NCBI GenBank assembly: GCA_049964835.1
Contig: JBMFWW010000013.1
Coordinates: 1 to 19,189, forward strand
Origin: Candidatus Micrarchaeia archaeon
Lineage (GTDB): Archaea > Micrarchaeota > Micrarchaeia > Micrarchaeales > CABMGC01
Direction: 5' to 3'
DNA: 19,189 nucleotides
The notes beneath the pieces were generated by a model. That model was not told the origin of the DNA. It searched no databases and saw only the letters and a list, made by a program, of their open reading frames with translations. Each line of letters starts with the position of its first letter. The stretch's first letter is position 1. The translations under genes and the position numbers were made by a program. Below are positions 9,883-17,009 of the stretch, piece by piece.

Positions 9883-10380
9883 TTAGTATATTTTTCCTTG
9901 TAAGGTAAGTTTTTGTTTTATTCTCTTTGGCTCATATGCATTGCCTAACTGATCAGTCATTGATGAAATTGAAACGTTTATAAGTTTTAAATTACCCATA
10001 ACCACAGTTCCTGGCTTTGCACTAAAATCTCCAATTATTTCGACAGAGTCTTGAATCCATACCCCTTCAACATTTTTGAAGTTGAAGCCATATTTTGAGT
10101 ATGTTTCACTGTTTGAAGATCTCATCTCATTAATTGCTGAGTCAAGAAGTGCATTTTCTTCTTTTGTATTTAGTCTTCTACCCTCTTTAAATGCTCTTTT
10201 CTCTTCGTTTGTAAATGGAACTTCTGGAACTTCTGGTGATTCTTTTCTTATTAGACCGTTTTTAATTAGACGAATAGTTAGCTCATTGCCGTTTCTAAAC
10301 ACTGATTTTAATAATTCGGTTACTTCAGTAGTTATTGACTTTTGCTTTCCTTTGTATTCTTCAATCTTTGGACTGACCAT
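9883..10380 (-). CDS. Hypothetical protein (start more likely ATG 10380 than GTG 10389)
   Basis: GTGATAAAAATG start context and TTTATATA at 10412-10419 on the minus strand. No family recognised. Confidence 0.65.
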   Translation of the reverse strand: MVSPKIEEYKGKQKSITTEVTELLKSVFRNGNELTIRLIKNGLIRKESPEVPEVPFTNEEKRAFKEGRRLNTKEENALLDSAINEMRSSNSETYSKYGFNFKNVEGVWIQDSVEIIGDFSAKPGTVVMGNLKLINVSISSMTDQLGNAYEPKRIKQKLTLQGKIY

Positions 10381-10539
10381 TTTTATCACAATAGATATTT
10401 GTTTTTTATCATATATAAAGCTTCTGGATTAAAATTATATAGAATAAATAGATGCAAGAAAATATATTAATTAGGTAAAACCAAAAGCAAAAAAAGGAAC
10501 AAAATTAAAATACAAAGTATAAATGTATAAGTAAATTAT

Positions 10540-10754: not shown

Positions 10755-11411
10755 ATGGTGGAGATGGATTTTGTAAGATGGTTGGGTCACGCGAGTTTCC
10801 TTTTTGATTATGAAGGTAAAAATATTTATGTTGATCCCTATAAATTAAAAAGGCCTGTAAAAAAAGCAGATTTAATATTTATAACGCATCCTCATTTTGA
10901 CCATTTAAGCCCAGAAGATATAAAAATGATATCAAAACCTACTACAAAAATCTTTGTGCCAAAGGATAGCGCTTCTAAAGTACCGCACAAAAATGTAAAT
11001 GTAGTTGAACCGAATAATGAGTATGAAGAATCAGGAGTAAAAATAAGCACACTGCCCGCATATAATGTGGTTAAAGAAAGGATTTCGATGCATCCAAAAG
11101 AAAATAAATGGGTAGGTTATGTTATAGATATGGGTGGAAAACGCATTTACCATGCCGGAGACACAGATGAAATTCCTGAAATGAATAATCTTAGGGTTGA
11201 TTTAGCTCTTTTGCCAATGGGTGGCACATATACAATGTCTGCAGACGAAATGATACATGCAGCAAAGAAAATGAAGGCAAAAAATGTAGCACCAATACAT
11301 TATAAAATGCTTTTAGGAAAAGATGGTTCTAAAGAAGCAGAAGAAAAGTTCTTAAAAGAAGTAAAAAATGGAGTTATAATAAATGAAGAAAATCCTGAGT
11401 TTCATTTCTGA
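10755..11411 (+). CDS. Metallo-beta-lactamase fold hydrolase
   Basis: WLGHASF, YVDPY, ITHPHFDH, YHAGDT, DLALLPMGG.YTM and PIHY motifs. Confidence 0.92.
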   Translation: MVEMDFVRWLGHASFLFDYEGKNIYVDPYKLKRPVKKADLIFITHPHFDHLSPEDIKMISKPTTKIFVPKDSASKVPHKNVNVVEPNNEYEESGVKISTLPAYNVVKERISMHPKENKWVGYVIDMGGKRIYHAGDTDEIPEMNNLRVDLALLPMGGTYTMSADEMIHAAKKMKAKNVAPIHYKMLLGKDGSKEAEEKFLKEVKNGVIINEENPEFHF

Positions 11412-12175
11412 AGCTCAATAAGAGTTTTTGATATTTTTAATATTGATTCTGGTTCGATCTTAAATACACGCTCTTCGAATATTGAATCGTTTAAAAATAA
11501 GTGTTCTAGTTTTGATTTTTCTATATTGAGTTTTGATATAGAGTTTATAATTGCATTTTTAAGTCTTTTTTTCTTATGCTGCATTATTAATGTGATTATC
11601 TCTTCCTCTTCATTGTTTGGCTTATTACTATTTGGTTTTATGTATATTATCTGTGAGTCTACCTTTGGTTTAGGGAAAAAACTTTTCCTTGAAACCTTCA
11701 TCATTGGTACTATCTTAAATGAAAGATGACACATTACACTAAGTTTTGAATATGATGGACTATTAGGGACAGCAAGCATATGGTCAACAAACTCTTTTTG
11801 TAAACATAGTATCGCCTCGATTTTATTTTTATACAACCAAGAAATAACCTTACTTGAAAGATTATAGGGTATATTTGATATTAGTATTTCTATATTTGAA
11901 AGATTTATTTCAGAATCTGTGCAATCAAAAAAATCCTTATTTATGAGTTTTAAGTTAGGATAAGTAAGTTTAGAAGATAAATAATTAAAAAGACGTTCAT
12001 CTTTTTCTACAGCTATGACCTCTTTTGAAACTTTGCATAACTCTTCGGTTAAAATGCCGCGCCCAGGACCTATTTCAAGAACTACTTTATCTTCTCCGTG
12101 AGCAGCCTCTGCAAATGCAACATTTTTATTTATTAAAAAATTTTGGCCTAATTTTTTATTGGGTTTTATAATCAT
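11402..12175 (-). CDS. rsmA: 16S rRNA m6,2A dimethyltransferase (KsgA/RsmA/Dim1)
   Basis: KKLGQNFL, VLEIGPGRGILT, AVEKD, SNIPY, LQKEF and FFPKPKVDS motifs. Confidence 0.96.
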   Translation of the reverse strand: MIIKPNKKLGQNFLINKNVAFAEAAHGEDKVVLEIGPGRGILTEELCKVSKEVIAVEKDERLFNYLSSKLTYPNLKLINKDFFDCTDSEINLSNIEILISNIPYNLSSKVISWLYKNKIEAILCLQKEFVDHMLAVPNSPSYSKLSVMCHLSFKIVPMMKVSRKSFFPKPKVDSQIIYIKPNSNKPNNEEEEIITLIMQHKKKRLKNAIINSISKLNIEKSKLEHLFLNDSIFEERVFKIEPESILKISKTLIELQK

Positions 12176-12230: not shown

Positions 12231-12830
12231 ATGACAAATATAGGTGCAATATTTAGCGGAACTGCTTCGGTAGCGATACTAAACAAGTATGGATATCTAG
12301 CTATATTTATACTAATGATTCTAGAATCAGCATCATTGCCAATACCCAGCGAGGTGATACTTCCAATAGCAGGAGTCATTGCTTTCCAAGGTGTATTGAA
12401 CTTTTATCTTATTTTAGTTGTAGCAACATTAGCTGGCATAATTGGTATTACTATAGATTATTACATAGCGTATCTGTTAAGCAAAGATTTGTTTTATAAG
12501 CACCTAAAATTTTTTAGGGTTAAGAAAGAAACATTAGATAACTTCGATGCTTGGTTTAATAGAAATGGGGTGGCAGCTGTCTTTTTCATGCGTATGGTTC
12601 CAGTCTTAAGGGGATTAATAAGCTTCCCTGCTGGTTTTTCAGGAATGAATAAAAAGAAGTTTTATTTATACTCAATACTCGGCTCGCTAGTTTGGGATGT
12701 ACTACTTTTGTCATTCGGATTTTATGCGTTAGGCACAAGTAATGTAGCAACAGCTATCATACTTATGTCAATCTTAGCAGTAGGATTATATCTCATTTAT
12801 ACAATAGTAAATAAAAAACTTAAAAAATAA
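12231..12830 (+). CDS. dedA: DedA family membrane protein
   Basis: LESASLPIPSEVILP.AG and F.RMVPVLRGLISFPAG motifs. Confidence 0.93.
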   Translation: MTNIGAIFSGTASVAILNKYGYLAIFILMILESASLPIPSEVILPIAGVIAFQGVLNFYLILVVATLAGIIGITIDYYIAYLLSKDLFYKHLKFFRVKKETLDNFDAWFNRNGVAAVFFMRMVPVLRGLISFPAGFSGMNKKKFYLYSILGSLVWDVLLLSFGFYALGTSNVATAIILMSILAVGLYLIYTIVNKKLKK

Positions 12831-12837
12831 AAATAAA

Positions 12838-13161
12838 TTACTCCTTCTTCTCTAAAATGTGGGTTTCTACTATCTTTATTACTTGATCTATTGATTTCTT
12901 TATGTCTGCTTCTGTTTTAGATCCTGTACAAATTATCTTTCCATTCTTAAATAAAAGAAGTGCAGTTTTTGGAGAGTGTATTTTGCATATTGCACCAGGA
13001 AACTGCTCTGGCTCATAATCTACATCAGGAGACGATTTTGCTATAGCGTATAAATCTAACTCTACTCCTAAATCTGCACTTGCAACTATATTTTCTATCT
13101 TGAAATCAGGATGAAGTATTGACTTCTTACTAGTTTTTTCTGTTTTTGGTTTTTTTGACAT
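12838..13161 (-). CDS. Single-repeat TATA-box-binding protein homolog (107 aa)
   Basis: One TBP repeat: KIENIVAS, LDL..IA, YEPEQFPG, PK..LLLFKNGKIICTG.K. ATG at 13161 has a GGTG RBS. The 13218 start in the ORF track runs through the promoter region. Confidence 0.88.
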   Translation of the reverse strand: MSKKPKTEKTSKKSILHPDFKIENIVASADLGVELDLYAIAKSSPDVDYEPEQFPGAICKIHSPKTALLLFKNGKIICTGSKTEADIKKSIDQVIKIVETHILEKKE

Positions 13162-13246
13162 TGCACCACGCTTTATAAATGGATATGAAAGGTATTTATA
13201 TGTTTTTCTATAAAACAATATTTGATATTATAAAGTAGTTGATACT
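13162..13246. promoter_or_regulatory. Divergent promoter region between the half-TBP gene and rpl21e
   Basis: 85-bp AT-rich spacer with TATA-like elements (palindromic TTTATAAA at 13172-13179; GAAAAACATATAAATA on the minus strand near 13193-13208) and RBS-like motifs for both genes. Confidence 0.5.
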
Positions 13247-13537
13247 ATGTCACAAAGATCTCACGGATTATTTATAGGTAGAACAAGAAATCTTGCAAGG
13301 CACAATAAACCTTCCACGTTAGGTATAACTAAATTAATAAAAAATTTAGAAATAGGAAGTAAGGTAGTTATATCACAAAAAAGTAACTTTAGAAACATAC
13401 CACACCCTAGATACAAAGGCAGAATTGGAACGGTTATAGAAAGGCGTGGAGACTCTTATGTTGTAGAGTTTCCAGTATCTAAATCTATTAAAAGAAAACT
13501 TGTAGTGCCGCAAATGCATCTAGAAAAATTTGAATAA
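13247..13537 (+). CDS. rpl21e: 50S ribosomal protein L21e
   Basis: RSHG....TR..L, G.KV.I, PHPRYKGRIGTVI..RG..Y.V and K.L.V...HL motifs. Confidence 0.95.
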   Translation: MSQRSHGLFIGRTRNLARHNKPSTLGITKLIKNLEIGSKVVISQKSNFRNIPHPRYKGRIGTVIERRGDSYVVEFPVSKSIKRKLVVPQMHLEKFE

Positions 13538-13543
13538 ACTTTT

Positions 13544-14125
13544 TTATTGTTTAAATTTTTGTGCTGGAGGCCTAGTAAGTATATAAAACCTAGTTTCTCC
13601 TTTTAATTCTATTAGTATTCTTTCTGTAAGTAATTTTATAGGATCTTGCAAAAGTTGCACTCTGTTTATCATATCATCAAAACTTTCGAATGGCTTTTCA
13701 TCTCTTGCTTCAAGTAGAGATATAAGATGTTTCTTGCCTATTCCTGGCAAAAGCTCCAAAGAATGCATACGTATATTTATAGGAGAGGCTGCATTAAAAA
13801 AGTTTACAAACTTTTTCTCATTGCTTTTTATTATATTAGTAATTGCTATTGGTAGCTCATTCTTTGCAACTTCAGTAAGATTTTGGTATGTTAACCTTGC
13901 TTTTATTAAGGATATTTTATCCCTATCTCCCTTCCCTATATATAATCGTTCTTGTATCTTGATGTTTTGGTCCTTAGGAACAGCTTCTAATAGTGTAAAT
14001 CTTAACTCGCCAATTATTTGAACAATGGGCTCTGATCGTACAGAAAAAGACCTTCCAGTAGATAGATAATCGAGTACAATACCATACTCTTCCAAATCCT
14101 CTCTTCTCTGTTCAAAGTCTTGCAT
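13544..14125 (-). CDS. DUF655 family putative RNA-binding protein
   Basis: VLDYL..G, Q.IGE..FTLLE, YIGKG.RDKI, F.NFFN.A.PI..RMHSLELLPGIGKK and PFESF.D motifs. Confidence 0.93.
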   Translation of the reverse strand: MQDFEQRREDLEEYGIVLDYLSTGRSFSVRSEPIVQIIGELRFTLLEAVPKDQNIKIQERLYIGKGDRDKISLIKARLTYQNLTEVAKNELPIAITNIIKSNEKKFVNFFNAASPINIRMHSLELLPGIGKKHLISLLEARDEKPFESFDDMINRVQLLQDPIKLLTERILIELKGETRFYILTRPPAQKFKQ

Positions 14126-14144: not shown

Positions 14145-14483
14145 TTAAGATTTACCCTTGTTATCTTCTATTAATGCCATTATTTTTTTAATTGACTCTT
14201 CATCTGGCATATCCTTTTCATTAGTAAGTATCTGTTTTAATTGTGATTCATCAACCGGCATTACATCTACTATCTGTATTGCTGATTTCTTGCTTATTCC
14301 CATGCTTTCCAACTGTTTGAATAGCTTTTCAGCCTTTGATATATCTATACTTAAAAACTTCTTAATGTGATCATATGAAACTTGCTGTTCGTAACCCATG
14401 TCTCCCTCCTTCATTCTTTTTTCTAGTATTTCTAAAGCCTCAGCAGTTGTTATTGGCTCACTTCCAGTATTCTTATTAACCAT
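14145..14483 (-). CDS. rpoF: RNA polymerase subunit F (Rpo4)
   Basis: 112 aa; EA.EIL..R, YEQQ..YDH.KKF and AIQIVDVMP....L..I motifs; adjacent to DUF655. Confidence 0.9.
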   Translation of the reverse strand: MVNKNTGSEPITTAEALEILEKRMKEGDMGYEQQVSYDHIKKFLSIDISKAEKLFKQLESMGISKKSAIQIVDVMPVDESQLKQILTNEKDMPDEESIKKIMALIEDNKGKS

Positions 14484-14723
14484 GCTCTACACCTTCAGTT
14501 ACGAATAGATATTTGAATATTATATATTATAAACCTTTTGTTTTGAAAGTAATGATAGATTAATATAACTAATATAATAGGTGTAAAAGACCAATTAGCT
14601 TATGAATAGTATCGGTATTTTCGCTCACATTGTTAAATTTACATTGAATGGAGTTAAAGGTATGGAAAGTAGACAATACTATATATTATTATTTTTTGAA
14701 GTTTTAGTACATTTGGTGTATTA

Positions 14724-15632
14724 TTGGAACCGGAATTAGTGTATAAAGAGTTAATCGATGAAATGCATAAACACATAGCTGGAAAGATAGAAACAATTGA
14801 ACTTATGATAATAGCTATTGTTGCAGATGGACATGCTCTTCTTGAAGGAGTTCCAGGAGTCGCAAAAACAACTATGACAAAGGCATTAGCAGATACGATA
14901 CAAGCTGATTTTAAAAGAATCCAGGGAACCCCAGACATAATACCAAAAGATATCATAGGTTATGTTTATGAAGATGAAAAAACAAAAGAAATAAGTTTTT
15001 ACAAAGGTCCAGTTTTTACTAATATACTGCTTATAGACGAACTTAACAGAATGCAGCCAAGAACCATGAGTGCTTTACTTGAAACTTTAGAAGAAAAACA
15101 GGTCAGTACAGGAGGCGATGATTTGAAGTTGCCTAAGCCATTTATTGCATTTGCAACGCAAAACCCTCTTAAAATAGAGGGTACCGAGCCTTTGCCAAAA
15201 GTTCTTGCGGATAGATTTATGATGAAGATAGATGTTGATTATCCGAGTATGGAGGAAGAACAGAACATGTTAAGAATAAAGGAGCGCGAAGAGAAGACCG
15301 TTGTAAAGAAGATAATAAACACCGAGGACATGCTAGTTTTGCAGGAGATGGCCAAAAAAATAAGCATCTCTGATGCTGTTGTAGAGTACATATCTAAAAT
15401 TGTTAATGCTACAAGAACCGATATGCATGTAGTGATGGGAGCAAGCCCTAGAGCAGATATTGCATTTATGAGAACTGCAAAGGCAAGAGCACTTTTGCAG
15501 GGTAGAAAGGAAGCAACTATAGATGATATAAAATTTCTTGCAAGACCAGTATTAAGCCATAGAATAACTGTAAGATCTACAGGAGGTATTGGAGTACATG
15601 GAATTATAGACGGTATATTAGCATCAAATTAA
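14724..15632 (+). CDS. MoxR family AAA+ ATPase
   Basis: GHALLEGVPGVAKT (Walker A), RIQGTPD, LLIDELNR (Walker B), ATQNP..EGT.PLP, DRF, GASPRA and VLSHRI motifs. TTG start with GGTG RBS. Confidence 0.95.
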   Translation: MEPELVYKELIDEMHKHIAGKIETIELMIIAIVADGHALLEGVPGVAKTTMTKALADTIQADFKRIQGTPDIIPKDIIGYVYEDEKTKEISFYKGPVFTNILLIDELNRMQPRTMSALLETLEEKQVSTGGDDLKLPKPFIAFATQNPLKIEGTEPLPKVLADRFMMKIDVDYPSMEEEQNMLRIKEREEKTVVKKIINTEDMLVLQEMAKKISISDAVVEYISKIVNATRTDMHVVMGASPRADIAFMRTAKARALLQGRKEATIDDIKFLARPVLSHRITVRSTGGIGVHGIIDGILASN

Positions 15633-16094: not shown

Positions 16095-17009
16095 ATGTTT
16101 TTGAACAAAATGAATCAGAATAAGATATTTCATAGGAATGAAGAGCTTAGAATCGCACTAAGTAAAATAAAACGAAATGTAGATATAATAATACACCCTT
16201 CAAAATTGCCTAGTTCTTTAGAATATACATACAATTTCACAAACGGACTTATTCTAAATGCGGCTGCCGTAGAGAATGATATCCAGAGTACATTGACAAC
16301 ACCAGCAGTAACTAGACTAGAATATATCGATACATTTAATTATTGGAATAACTCTAAAAGCATAAAAGATTTTGAACGGGTTTTTAGCAAAAAGCGTTTC
16401 CAAGAATTTTTTATTAGGAGTAGTTCAAATAATACAAAAGATTACTTAAAACTAGAAATGTTAACCATAGATGAACTTAAACAATTAGCAGAGCTAGGCA
16501 GACAGGAGGTACTAAGTTTTCCAGAGTATCTCGAGCTGTATAAAAAAATACGTTTATTCAATCCAGATGCACCAAAACTCGCAATTGATATACACAAACC
16601 TTATTTATCAGAAAGTGTTTTCAAAGAATTAGAATCTGAAGGATTATCTGATAGAATTTATATTATTATGGAAAGAAATTTAGAATCCTTATCTTCAATA
16701 AATAAATTTTTAAGCAAAAAAGGTAAAAATACAAATATTGGATTTGTTCCTGAAAGCAACATACTTGAATATGAAGGAGTAGATGCTTTCAAGAACTGCA
16801 TTAGAAGCGCGGTAGTTAATTATGAAATAAAAACATTTAGTATAAAACTGTCAGAACTTGATAATGTAGTAGATGAATTAAAAAAAACCAGATTAAAAAG
16901 TTACTCGCTAATAGTATATGTTCCTAGAACAGAAAATGATATTAATTTTCTTATTTCTAAAATACATTCGAATAATAACATAAAGGCGTATCAGGTAGAT
17001 TCTAAATAA
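16095..17009 (+). CDS. Divergent glycerophosphodiester phosphodiesterase (GDPD/PLC-like TIM-barrel) family protein
   Basis: Colinear GDPD-like motifs: IFHR, AAAVENDIQST, MLTIDELKQL, VLSFPEYL, LAIDIH, GLSDRIYI, IVYVPRTEND and AYQVD. Confidence 0.6.
   Translation: MFLNKMNQNKIFHRNEELRIALSKIKRNVDIIIHPSKLPSSLEYTYNFTNGLILNAAAVENDIQSTLTTPAVTRLEYIDTFNYWNNSKSIKDFERVFSKKRFQEFFIRSSSNNTKDYLKLEMLTIDELKQLAELGRQEVLSFPEYLELYKKIRLFNPDAPKLAIDIHKPYLSESVFKELESEGLSDRIYIIMERNLESLSSINKFLSKKGKNTNIGFVPESNILEYEGVDAFKNCIRSAVVNYEIKTFSIKLSELDNVVDELKKTRLKSYSLIVYVPRTENDINFLISKIHSNNNIKAYQVDSK

Follow-up and report, generated by a model that had tools for sequence, protein, structure and literature searches.

A stand-alone single-repeat TATA-binding protein gene at the tbp locus of a micrarchaeal genome and its relatives

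Introduction

TATA-binding protein (TBP) counts throughout archaea and eukaryotes as a pseudo-symmetric protein of two repeats. In canonical archaeal TBPs, such as those of Pyrococcus woesei (Protein Data Bank entries 1PCZ, 1AIS and 1D3U), Methanocaldococcus jannaschii (2Z8U) and Sulfolobus acidocaldarius (1MP9), two PF00352 repeats make up a chain of about 180 amino acids. In the textbook account, this architecture originated from a homodimer of one domain by duplication and fusion, but to our knowledge no natural example of such a homodimer as the main TBP of a cell has been described. Here we analyse a gene, called A, that encodes a single TBP repeat and lies in a 19,189-nucleotide stretch of DNA (the window) from a Candidatus Micrarchaeia archaeon, together with its relatives in the same order and class.

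Proteins with a single TBP domain are known from Halobacteria (TbpA) and from some Euryarchaea, for example the Thermococcales, where they measure 91–97 amino acids; in the 2013 survey of the TBP-domain superfamily, they always occur beside full-length TBPs, TbpA is reported to be non-essential and the Thermococcales set is distantly related to the TBPs of its own genomes (Brindefalk et al., 2013; PMC3597702). In a comparative paper on the DPANN archaea, TBP is merely listed as conserved. A literature search, with subscription journals and supplements outside its reach, found no paper in which the only TBP of Micrarchaeota or of DPANN archaea is described as a single-repeat protein.

Results

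Sequence and predicted fold of A

Gene A is an intact open frame of 107 codons, without internal stops, on the minus strand of the window (12838–13161; Table 1). The frame from stop to stop measures 126–129 amino acids and contains an in-frame TTG upstream, at 13218; in the alignment, the homologues start at the methionine of 13161. Residues 19–99 are the sole PF00352 stretch, with an E-value of 4.9e-29 and 100.4 bits against a curated cut-off of 22.9. The protein is thus a single domain of under 150 amino acids, with no other domain. When compared with ten NCBIfam models of full-length TBP (PRK00394), it scores 67–91 bits and reaches none of their cut-offs (181–347 bits), because half of the protein is missing. 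A belongs to the TBP repeat family, yet lacks the two-repeat architecture that defines TBP proper.

The translation contains the segments NIVAS, YEPEQFPG and GKIICTG and both phenylalanine positions (in QFPG and LLLF). An earlier note, made from the letters of the window alone, had described A as an intact, stand-alone half-TBP of 107 residues with these motifs and a lysine-rich start, a description that is borne out in each of its parts. Phe54 and Phe71, the putative DNA-inserting residues, align with the phenylalanines of both repeats in 1PCZ and 2Z8U; YEPEQFPG is the putative stirrup. A matches both repeats of solved TBPs about equally well: in P. woesei TBP (1PCZ), the N repeat scores 68 bits and the C repeat 75 bits, and in the M. 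jannaschii protein (2Z8U) each of the two scores 72 bits.

The AlphaFold2 model of the A monomer has a mean predicted local distance difference test score (pLDDT) of 86.8, with values of 56–70 for the tail formed by residues 1–20. A Foldseek search with this model gave 44 matches at E ≤ 0.001, every one of them a TBP chain. For most of these chains, the model can be superposed on a single lobe with a root mean square deviation (r.m.s.d.) of 1.0–1.9 Å over 77–88 columns. The template modelling (TM) score is 0.68–0.76 when calculated by query length and about 0.45 by the length of the targets, which are two-lobed. Ribonuclease (RNase) HIII appears only at rank 49 of the fold search, with an E-value of 0.31. 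A is therefore predicted to have the fold of a TBP lobe, with the strands and the two helices of one repeat.

TBP genes of the genome

The analysed assembly (G000) consists of 805,809 bases in 46 contigs, with 32% G+C, and is 94.4% complete. A six-frame search of the whole assembly with PF00352 at E ≤ 10 revealed two places only: A and an unlinked single repeat, B, on contig C12. In this search, neither a second repeat on the contig of A nor a two-repeat TBP anywhere in the 94.4% of the genome that is covered was found. The earlier note, which had left room for a two-repeat TBP elsewhere in the genome, treated A as the only TBP-like gene; on this last point it was mistaken.

B occupies a frame of 121 amino acids and scores 92 bits with PF00352. 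It is 110 residues long when read from the first ATG and 107 when read from the methionine used by its relatives. The identity between A and B is 43% for the entire proteins and 51% for a core of 79 residues; basic tails like that of A are present in the alignment in B and other half-TBPs as well. The genome contains one gene for transcription factor B (TFB). Generally, B is accompanied by a gene for a glycosyltransferase of the GT4 type, which adjoins it in 13 of the 14 B loci, in families f1 and f3. Upstream of B in our assembly (L002:149-1381, plus strand) a protein of 410 amino acids is encoded that has no Pfam match and is only partly conserved in relatives. It contains repeated segments resembling APAYV(S/T)PYNGYN and a hydrophobic carboxy-terminal stretch, and may be a surface protein.

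Distribution of single-repeat TBPs

The sample of the order comprises 41 genomes from three families and 28 genera, G000 included. The half-TBP, whose conservation among relatives the earlier note had asked about, is general here: all 41 genomes (40 of 40 when G038, which is marked as unpublished, is left out) carry PF00352 only as separate single-repeat frames, of 100–185 amino acids save one of 274. Two unlinked matches are present in 33 of the genomes and one match in the other eight. In G032 and G039, order genomes that each consist of a single contig, there are two single repeats located far apart. G094 was considered as a close relative with a two-repeat TBP and was rejected. Its canonical-type gene (L074, G094:C77) is on a contig of 3.7 kb, away from the tbp locus, and the two repeats score 47 and 55 bits to A, while the A gene of this family-f1 genome is in its normal neighbourhood on contig C34. 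The L074 gene is probably a binning contaminant.

For the class, 151 genomes of at least 85% completeness were searched with PF00352 at E ≤ 0.001. Matches were obtained in 148 of them, and 63 of the 151 have exactly one repeat, by hand count of the table. Among the matches listed (150 of 238), two-repeat TBPs are present in families f5, f10, f13, f14, f16 and f19, where they appear as two adjacent matches in one frame of 188–223 amino acids. With B as the query and at E ≤ 10, just one single-repeat gene each was found in G117 and G129, which consist of one contig each, and in G013, G045 and G064. In some genomes of the class, between two and four PF00352 matches were obtained, and three single-repeat genes are present in both G063 (L059–L061) and G069 (family f8). 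Two of those in G069 (G069:C62:704-943 and 1973-2215) share a contig, with about 1 kb between them. These triplets point to recurrent expansion of half-TBP paralogues.

Among public records, 80 loci that carry lineage labels were compared. A single-repeat frame away from contig edges is present in 20 of them, labelled Micrarchaeota (13), Marsarchaeota (2), archaeon (2), Iainarchaeum, Nanobdellati and Methanothrix (1 each); the locus labelled Methanothrix probably has a weak N repeat. In Thermoplasmata, Bathyarchaeia, Nitrosopumilus, Methanomassiliicoccales, Woesearchaeota, Thorarchaeota and further groups, which together supplied 41 loci, every locus has two repeats. The frames labelled Candidatus Iainarchaeum (L095, 100 amino acids) and Nanobdellati archaeon (L103, 167 amino acids with one repeat) may be explained by their labelling or by a wider spread of the single-repeat trait in DPANN archaea. 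In public protein sets there are 754 matches, many of them (hundreds) of 95–130 amino acids; several are titled "hypothetical protein".

Conserved neighbourhood and selection

Of the 34 A loci, 32 have the gene for ribosomal protein L21e next to A; it is missing from this place only in L008, which is interrupted by the end of its contig, and in L027. A neighbourhood with L21e, RpoF and DUF655 genes also flanks nine of the 13 single-repeat genes of other families and all nine two-repeat TBPs of the class. Because relatives in the class keep tbp in this neighbourhood, A is the positional orthologue of tbp. Two-repeat TBPs at an A-type locus are present only in other families of the class.

Among 55 pairs compared within the genus, 18 have a dS between 0.05 and 2; for these, the ratio of non-synonymous to synonymous substitution rates (dN/dS) of A has a median of 0.06. 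A is under strong purifying selection. It has the look of a housekeeping gene, the role that had been suggested for it. The outcomes that the earlier note had named as speaking against it, a two-repeat TBP of close relatives at this locus or a dN/dS near 1, are not what is seen: relatives in the order share the half-gene. In the 76 half-TBPs that were aligned, 23 positions are invariant, including Tyr49, Glu50, Pro51, Gln53, Phe54, Pro55 and Gly56 in the putative stirrup region, and Phe71, Gly74 and Lys75.

For B, synonymous sites are mostly saturated and the median dN/dS of 0.15 comes from only two usable pairs of 28; dN to the nearest relative is 0.09. B is also maintained by the lineage, as is clear from the support of its clade (98–100), the pairing with the GT4 gene and a mean core identity of 75% within the group.

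Relationships of the repeats

All trees were quick IQ-TREE reconstructions from 79–85 columns, unrooted and with support from the Shimodaira–Hasegawa-like approximate likelihood ratio test (SH-aLRT) only. In three such trees, all repeats of the class (A, B, the other halves and both repeats of the two-repeat TBPs) are apart from the canonical N and C repeats. The branch separating them has a support of 97 with one outgroup and of 99 when 25 TBPs of known lineage are used, which contribute 48 canonical N and C repeats. A and B form a clade with supports of 99, 96 and 100 in the three trees, and the B clade inside it has supports of 98, 100 and 100, on a long stem of 0.63–0.94. The core of B is on average 53% identical to that of A, 46–49% to other repeats of the class and 34–35% to the canonical N and C repeats. 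The two-repeat TBPs of the class are 56–57% identical to A over the core.

In the nine two-repeat TBPs of the class (L063–L071), the N and C repeats are 51–70% identical to each other, compared with 30–51% (median 39%) in 41 other two-repeat TBPs. Long identical blocks are shared within some of the L063–L071 repeat pairs. Together with the high identity, this hints at gene conversion or at an internal duplication of recent date. It thus appears that the repeats of the class were once all of a single kind, be it as a single-lobe gene or as homogenised repeats. This lobe would then have been duplicated to give B before families f1 and f3 diverged, and several genera of f1 would have lost B later.

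Repeated independent re-duplications were also considered. In an unrooted tree of 34 loci, built from the DUF655 gene of the neighbourhood, the one- or two-repeat state requires one change, with a weak support of 77; many independent re-duplications are not required because this one change suffices. In L100, titled Methanobacteriota archaeon SZUA-1452, both repeats of a two-repeat TBP are placed inside the Micrarchaeota repeat clade; its label or bin may be wrong.

N- and C-lobe character

Hidden Markov models (HMMs) of N and C repeats were built from 41 two-repeat TBPs of other phyla, in two splits. Held-out repeats were classed correctly in 41 of 41 cases for N and 41 of 41 for C, at about +/-25 bits. 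With these models, 33 of the 34 A sequences come out as N-like in one split and 31 in the other, by +6 to +10 bits, and the other half-TBPs are N-like in 13 and 11 of 13. B is C-like in 14 of 14 sequences in both splits, by -3 to -5 bits. The N and C repeats of the two-repeat TBPs of the class themselves score near zero.

At the 21 columns that discriminate best between N and C repeats, A leans to N at 12 and to C at four, and B leans to C at nine and to N at seven. Residue 23 is a glutamate in N repeats and in A and a glutamine in C repeats and in B. The three residues preceding the second phenylalanine (66–68) are Thr-Ala-Leu in A and N repeats and Ala-Val-Ile in B and C repeats; in the two-repeat TBPs of the class there is no clear differentiation between N and C at these residues.

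An earlier HMM test had used as outgroup 41 two-repeat proteins taken from the best matches to A. In that test all repeats of the class were N-like, including B in 14 of 14 sequences. The proposal that all of them are N-derived has been withdrawn as a firm statement, as the outgroup from other phyla separated N from C far better and reversed the result for B. Since the first outgroup made B N-like, its lean towards C is both small and dependent on the outgroup. When B was forced to group with canonical C repeats, the approximately unbiased (AU) test gave a p-value of 0.357 and, in a second instance, of 0.068, with a tree 25 log-likelihood units worse. Most likely, B is a fast-evolving duplicate that acquired C-lobe states; true descent from a C repeat seems less likely.

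Features of the locus

Downstream of A, 7 bp separate its stop codon from the end of the DedA/VTT gene (12830), and 85 bp lie between its ATG and the start of rpl21e (13247). Both spacers are empty of any remnant of a second repeat, for which, as had been remarked, there is no room. The neighbouring dedA, rpl21e, ksgA and rpoF genes had been correctly recognised, to which the DUF655 gene can be added.

A ribosome-binding site and a TATA-like element of its own had also been attributed to A. The GGTG sequence is indeed present, although its spacing does not agree: over the genome, enrichment of G before start codons peaks at about -8 to -6. Two TATA-like strings are present as well, of which TTTATAAA is, in our judgement, too near to the start to serve it. 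These strings carry little weight, because a genome of 32% G+C makes them common. In 411 upstream regions of the genome, counts of hexamers are similar on both strands (for example, 89 for TTTATA and 75 for TATAAA), and no sharp positional TATA peak was found in them. In a genome of this composition, such counts say little about promoter symmetry.

Elsewhere in the window, the open reading frames at 9883-10389 (minus strand), 14654-14956 (minus strand) and 16095-17009 (plus strand), of 168, 100 and 304 amino acids, belong to no Pfam family at E ≤ 0.001. The frame of 100 amino acids overlaps a MoxR-type AAA gene on the opposite strand (14724-15632, plus strand) and may not be a gene.

Table 1. 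Features of the A locus (positions in the window) and of the B locus (on contig C12).
Feature	Position	Strand	Evidence and remarks
Single-repeat TBP gene A, 107 amino acids	12838..13161	-	Stop codon 12838-12840; translation
TBP repeat proper	12865..13107	-	100.4 bits in the six-frame search of the genome; PF00352 profile positions 1-83 of 85
Lysine-rich N-terminal tail of A	13120..13161	-	6 K among residues 1-14; translation
rpl21e	13247..13537	+	PF01157, E 1.1e-11; divergent neighbour, conserved marker of the tbp locus
DUF655 gene	13544..14125	-	PF04919, E 7.5e-60; conserved tbp neighbourhood
Rpo4/RpoF gene	14145..14483	-	PF03874, E 6.3e-07; conserved tbp neighbourhood
DedA/VTT-domain gene	12231..12830	+	PF09335, E 1.4e-18; convergent; beside A in most family-f1 loci
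KsgA/RsmA rRNA adenine dimethylase	11402..12175	-	PF00398, E 4e-45; context
Divergent A/rpl21e spacer, 85 bp	13162..13246	.	Holds TATA-like strings on the minus strand; putative promoter
GGTG, possible Shine-Dalgarno core	13164..13167	-	2 nt before the ATG of A
TATA-like TTTATAAA	13172-13179	-	Sequence; judged too near to serve the start of A
TATA-like ATATAAAT	13194-13201	-	Sequence
Single-repeat TBP gene B	contig C12, L002:1438-1770	+	PF00352, E 2.2e-26, one stretch; outside the window
GT4 glycosyltransferase beside B	L002:1751-2905	-	Beside B in 13 of 14 B loci

Discussion

We consider it probable that A is the general TBP of this archaeon in the form of a single lobe, and that two such lobes join non-covalently into a DNA-binding saddle. 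We infer that A dimerises and that it would bind TATA DNA and TFB. The main TBP, an alternative factor for palindromic TATA boxes and a TFB-titrating regulator were the three roles put forward for A in the earlier note. Of these the first is the best, because the genome lacks a two-repeat TBP, and it is favoured as well by the position at the tbp locus; the titrating regulator is the weakest. Throughout the lineage, transcription seems to be initiated with lobes that are separate proteins.

In such a mechanism A would pair with itself, and A·A would have to suffice wherever A is alone; as closed relatives have only A, it should be able to work in this way. In our genome, a fully symmetric homodimer is not the sole option because B is present: the working factor would probably comprise both A·A and A·B, perhaps with B·B, and A·B is no less likely than the homodimer. 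In a dimer, the single TFB would be offered two YEPEQFPG stirrups. The YEPEQFPG stirrup of the P. woesei C repeat is presumably the site where TFB binds. The direction of the promoter would be set by TFB and the TFB-recognition element (BRE). Bell and co-workers are said to have reported in 1999 that TFB, by reading the BRE, orients the archaeal pre-initiation complex; a literature search on TFB/BRE polarity found nothing. If direction is set in this manner, a symmetric TBP would be tolerable.

Some observations weigh against this reading. The GGTG sequence is unusually near to the ATG, closer than the peak of G in the genome as a whole, and the promoter is only predicted. Within the genus, nine of 11 genomes carry both A and B, and the remaining two, which are 65% and 85% complete, have one match each; an obligate pair and an accessory B would both agree with this pattern. 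Three genomes of the class (G056, G082 and G148), which are 91–94% complete, gave no PF00352 match at E ≤ 0.001. Lastly, our assembly is 94% complete and in 46 contigs, so that the absence of a two-repeat TBP from it does not by itself prove the point; the argument is carried by the closed relatives. As to the three genomes without a match, assembly gaps or a more diverged TBP could be responsible.

A narrower version of the single-lobe TBP is an obligate split TBP, in which A is the N-lobe, B is the C-lobe and only A·B works. B would then derive either from a C repeat after fission of the gene or from a single-lobe duplicate that re-evolved C-lobe features. The HMMs from other phyla, with A N-like and B C-like, the residues at 23 and 66–68 and the retention of both genes in 33 of the 41 order genomes are all consistent with this, and the AU test does not reject a grouping of B with canonical C repeats at either p-value (0.357 and 0.068). 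However, relatives in the same family, among them the closed genomes G117 and G129, have A without B. The trees join A and B (96–100) inside the clade of class repeats, apart from canonical N and C, and B is much closer to the A core (53% identity) than to canonical N or C repeats (34–35%). The first outgroup gave B as N-like in all 14 sequences and the constrained tree was 25 log-likelihood units worse. We regard the obligate split as doubtful, albeit the best of the alternatives. With its C-lobe states, B would allow an A·B pair to re-create an asymmetric N/C saddle in trans. That the order first lost the covalent two-lobe form and then re-evolved an asymmetry of the N/C kind in this manner is a tentative idea, which we hold to be about as doubtful as the split itself.

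A single lobe might also act as a monomer or with a partner that is not a TBP, for instance by binding half-sites or as a bridging factor. Single TBP-like domains do function within RNase HIII and DNA glycosylases, according to PMC3597702. However, in the 76 half-TBPs all DNA-contact and stirrup motifs of a genuine TBP repeat are invariant, and relatives in the class join two such repeats, 51–70% identical, in one chain at the same locus, from which it follows that repeats of this type pack against each other. A lobe acting without a second lobe is thus improbable.

More improbable still is that the single lobe of Micrarchaeota is the retained pre-duplication form, a living example of the homodimeric ancestor of the two-repeat TBPs in all other archaea and in eukaryotes, instead of a secondary reduction. 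The repeat trees, which are unrooted, are compatible with this, with the Micrarchaeota repeats in one clade on a branch of support 99, but A and the other halves lean to N-repeat states and the DPANN-labelled Woesearchaeota have ordinary N/C TBPs.

We give slightly less credence again to A as an accessory TBP-like protein (a regulator, TFB titrator or alternative factor), with the real TBP in an unassembled part of the genome. Our assembly is incomplete and in 46 contigs, and monopartite TBP-domain proteins are known from Halobacteria and Thermococcales, as described in PMC3597702. However, none of the 41 order genomes has a two-repeat TBP, including the single-contig G032 and G039, and the closed G117 and G129 hold one single repeat only. 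A itself occupies the tbp locus and scores 100 bits with PF00352, while the Thermococcales proteins are, in the same survey, distantly related to their own TBPs. An artefact or decay, either by misassembly or by recent truncation of a two-repeat tbp, has nothing in its favour but the unusual length of A and can be dismissed in view of the dozens of independent assemblies that share its architecture and synteny, the dN/dS of about 0.06, the spacers without remnant and the hundreds of public homologues of 95–130 amino acids.

The interest of these proteins lies in archaeal transcription and in protein evolution. They offer a natural series: genomes with one type of lobe, which implies a symmetric dimer, genomes with two diverged types (A and B), and sister families with a two-repeat chain at the same locus. 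With this series it can be asked whether a symmetric TBP is enough, how promoter direction is obtained when the stirrups are alike, and which residues make an N- or a C-lobe. There are consequences for annotation too, as models of full-length TBP miss the half-TBPs, several of which carry the title "hypothetical protein" at NCBI.

Comparison with known systems

Relative to the canonical archaeal TBPs, A is alike in sequence (phmmer E-values of 1e-41 to 2e-37), in predicted fold (superposition on one lobe with an r.m.s.d. of 1.1–2.5 Å), in the pair of phenylalanines and in the YEPEQFPG segment, whose letters are those of the C repeat of P. woesei at its stirrup. It is unlike them in having one repeat, so that the lobes are not linked covalently (and in A·A would be identical), and in its basic amino-terminal tail. 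With the two-repeat TBPs of the class (L063–L071) it shares the L21e/RpoF/DUF655 locus and membership of one clade of repeats, whereas those proteins join two repeats in a chain. Haloarchaea have multiple TBP and TFB paralogues, which are possible alternative initiation factors; in comparison, half-TBPs would vary by the combination of lobes, next to the single TFB of our genome.

RNase HIII and DNA glycosylases share one copy of the helix-grip TBP fold with A (PMC3597702); they contain it as a divergent domain of multidomain enzymes. Closest in form are TbpA and the monopartite proteins of the Thermococcales, as that survey describes them: like A, they are stand-alone proteins of about 100 amino acids with one TBP domain. 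Unlike them, A is at the tbp locus, is a high-scoring, genuine TBP repeat and has no full-length TBP beside it, be it in our genome, in any of the 41 order genomes or in the five closed or near-closed ones.

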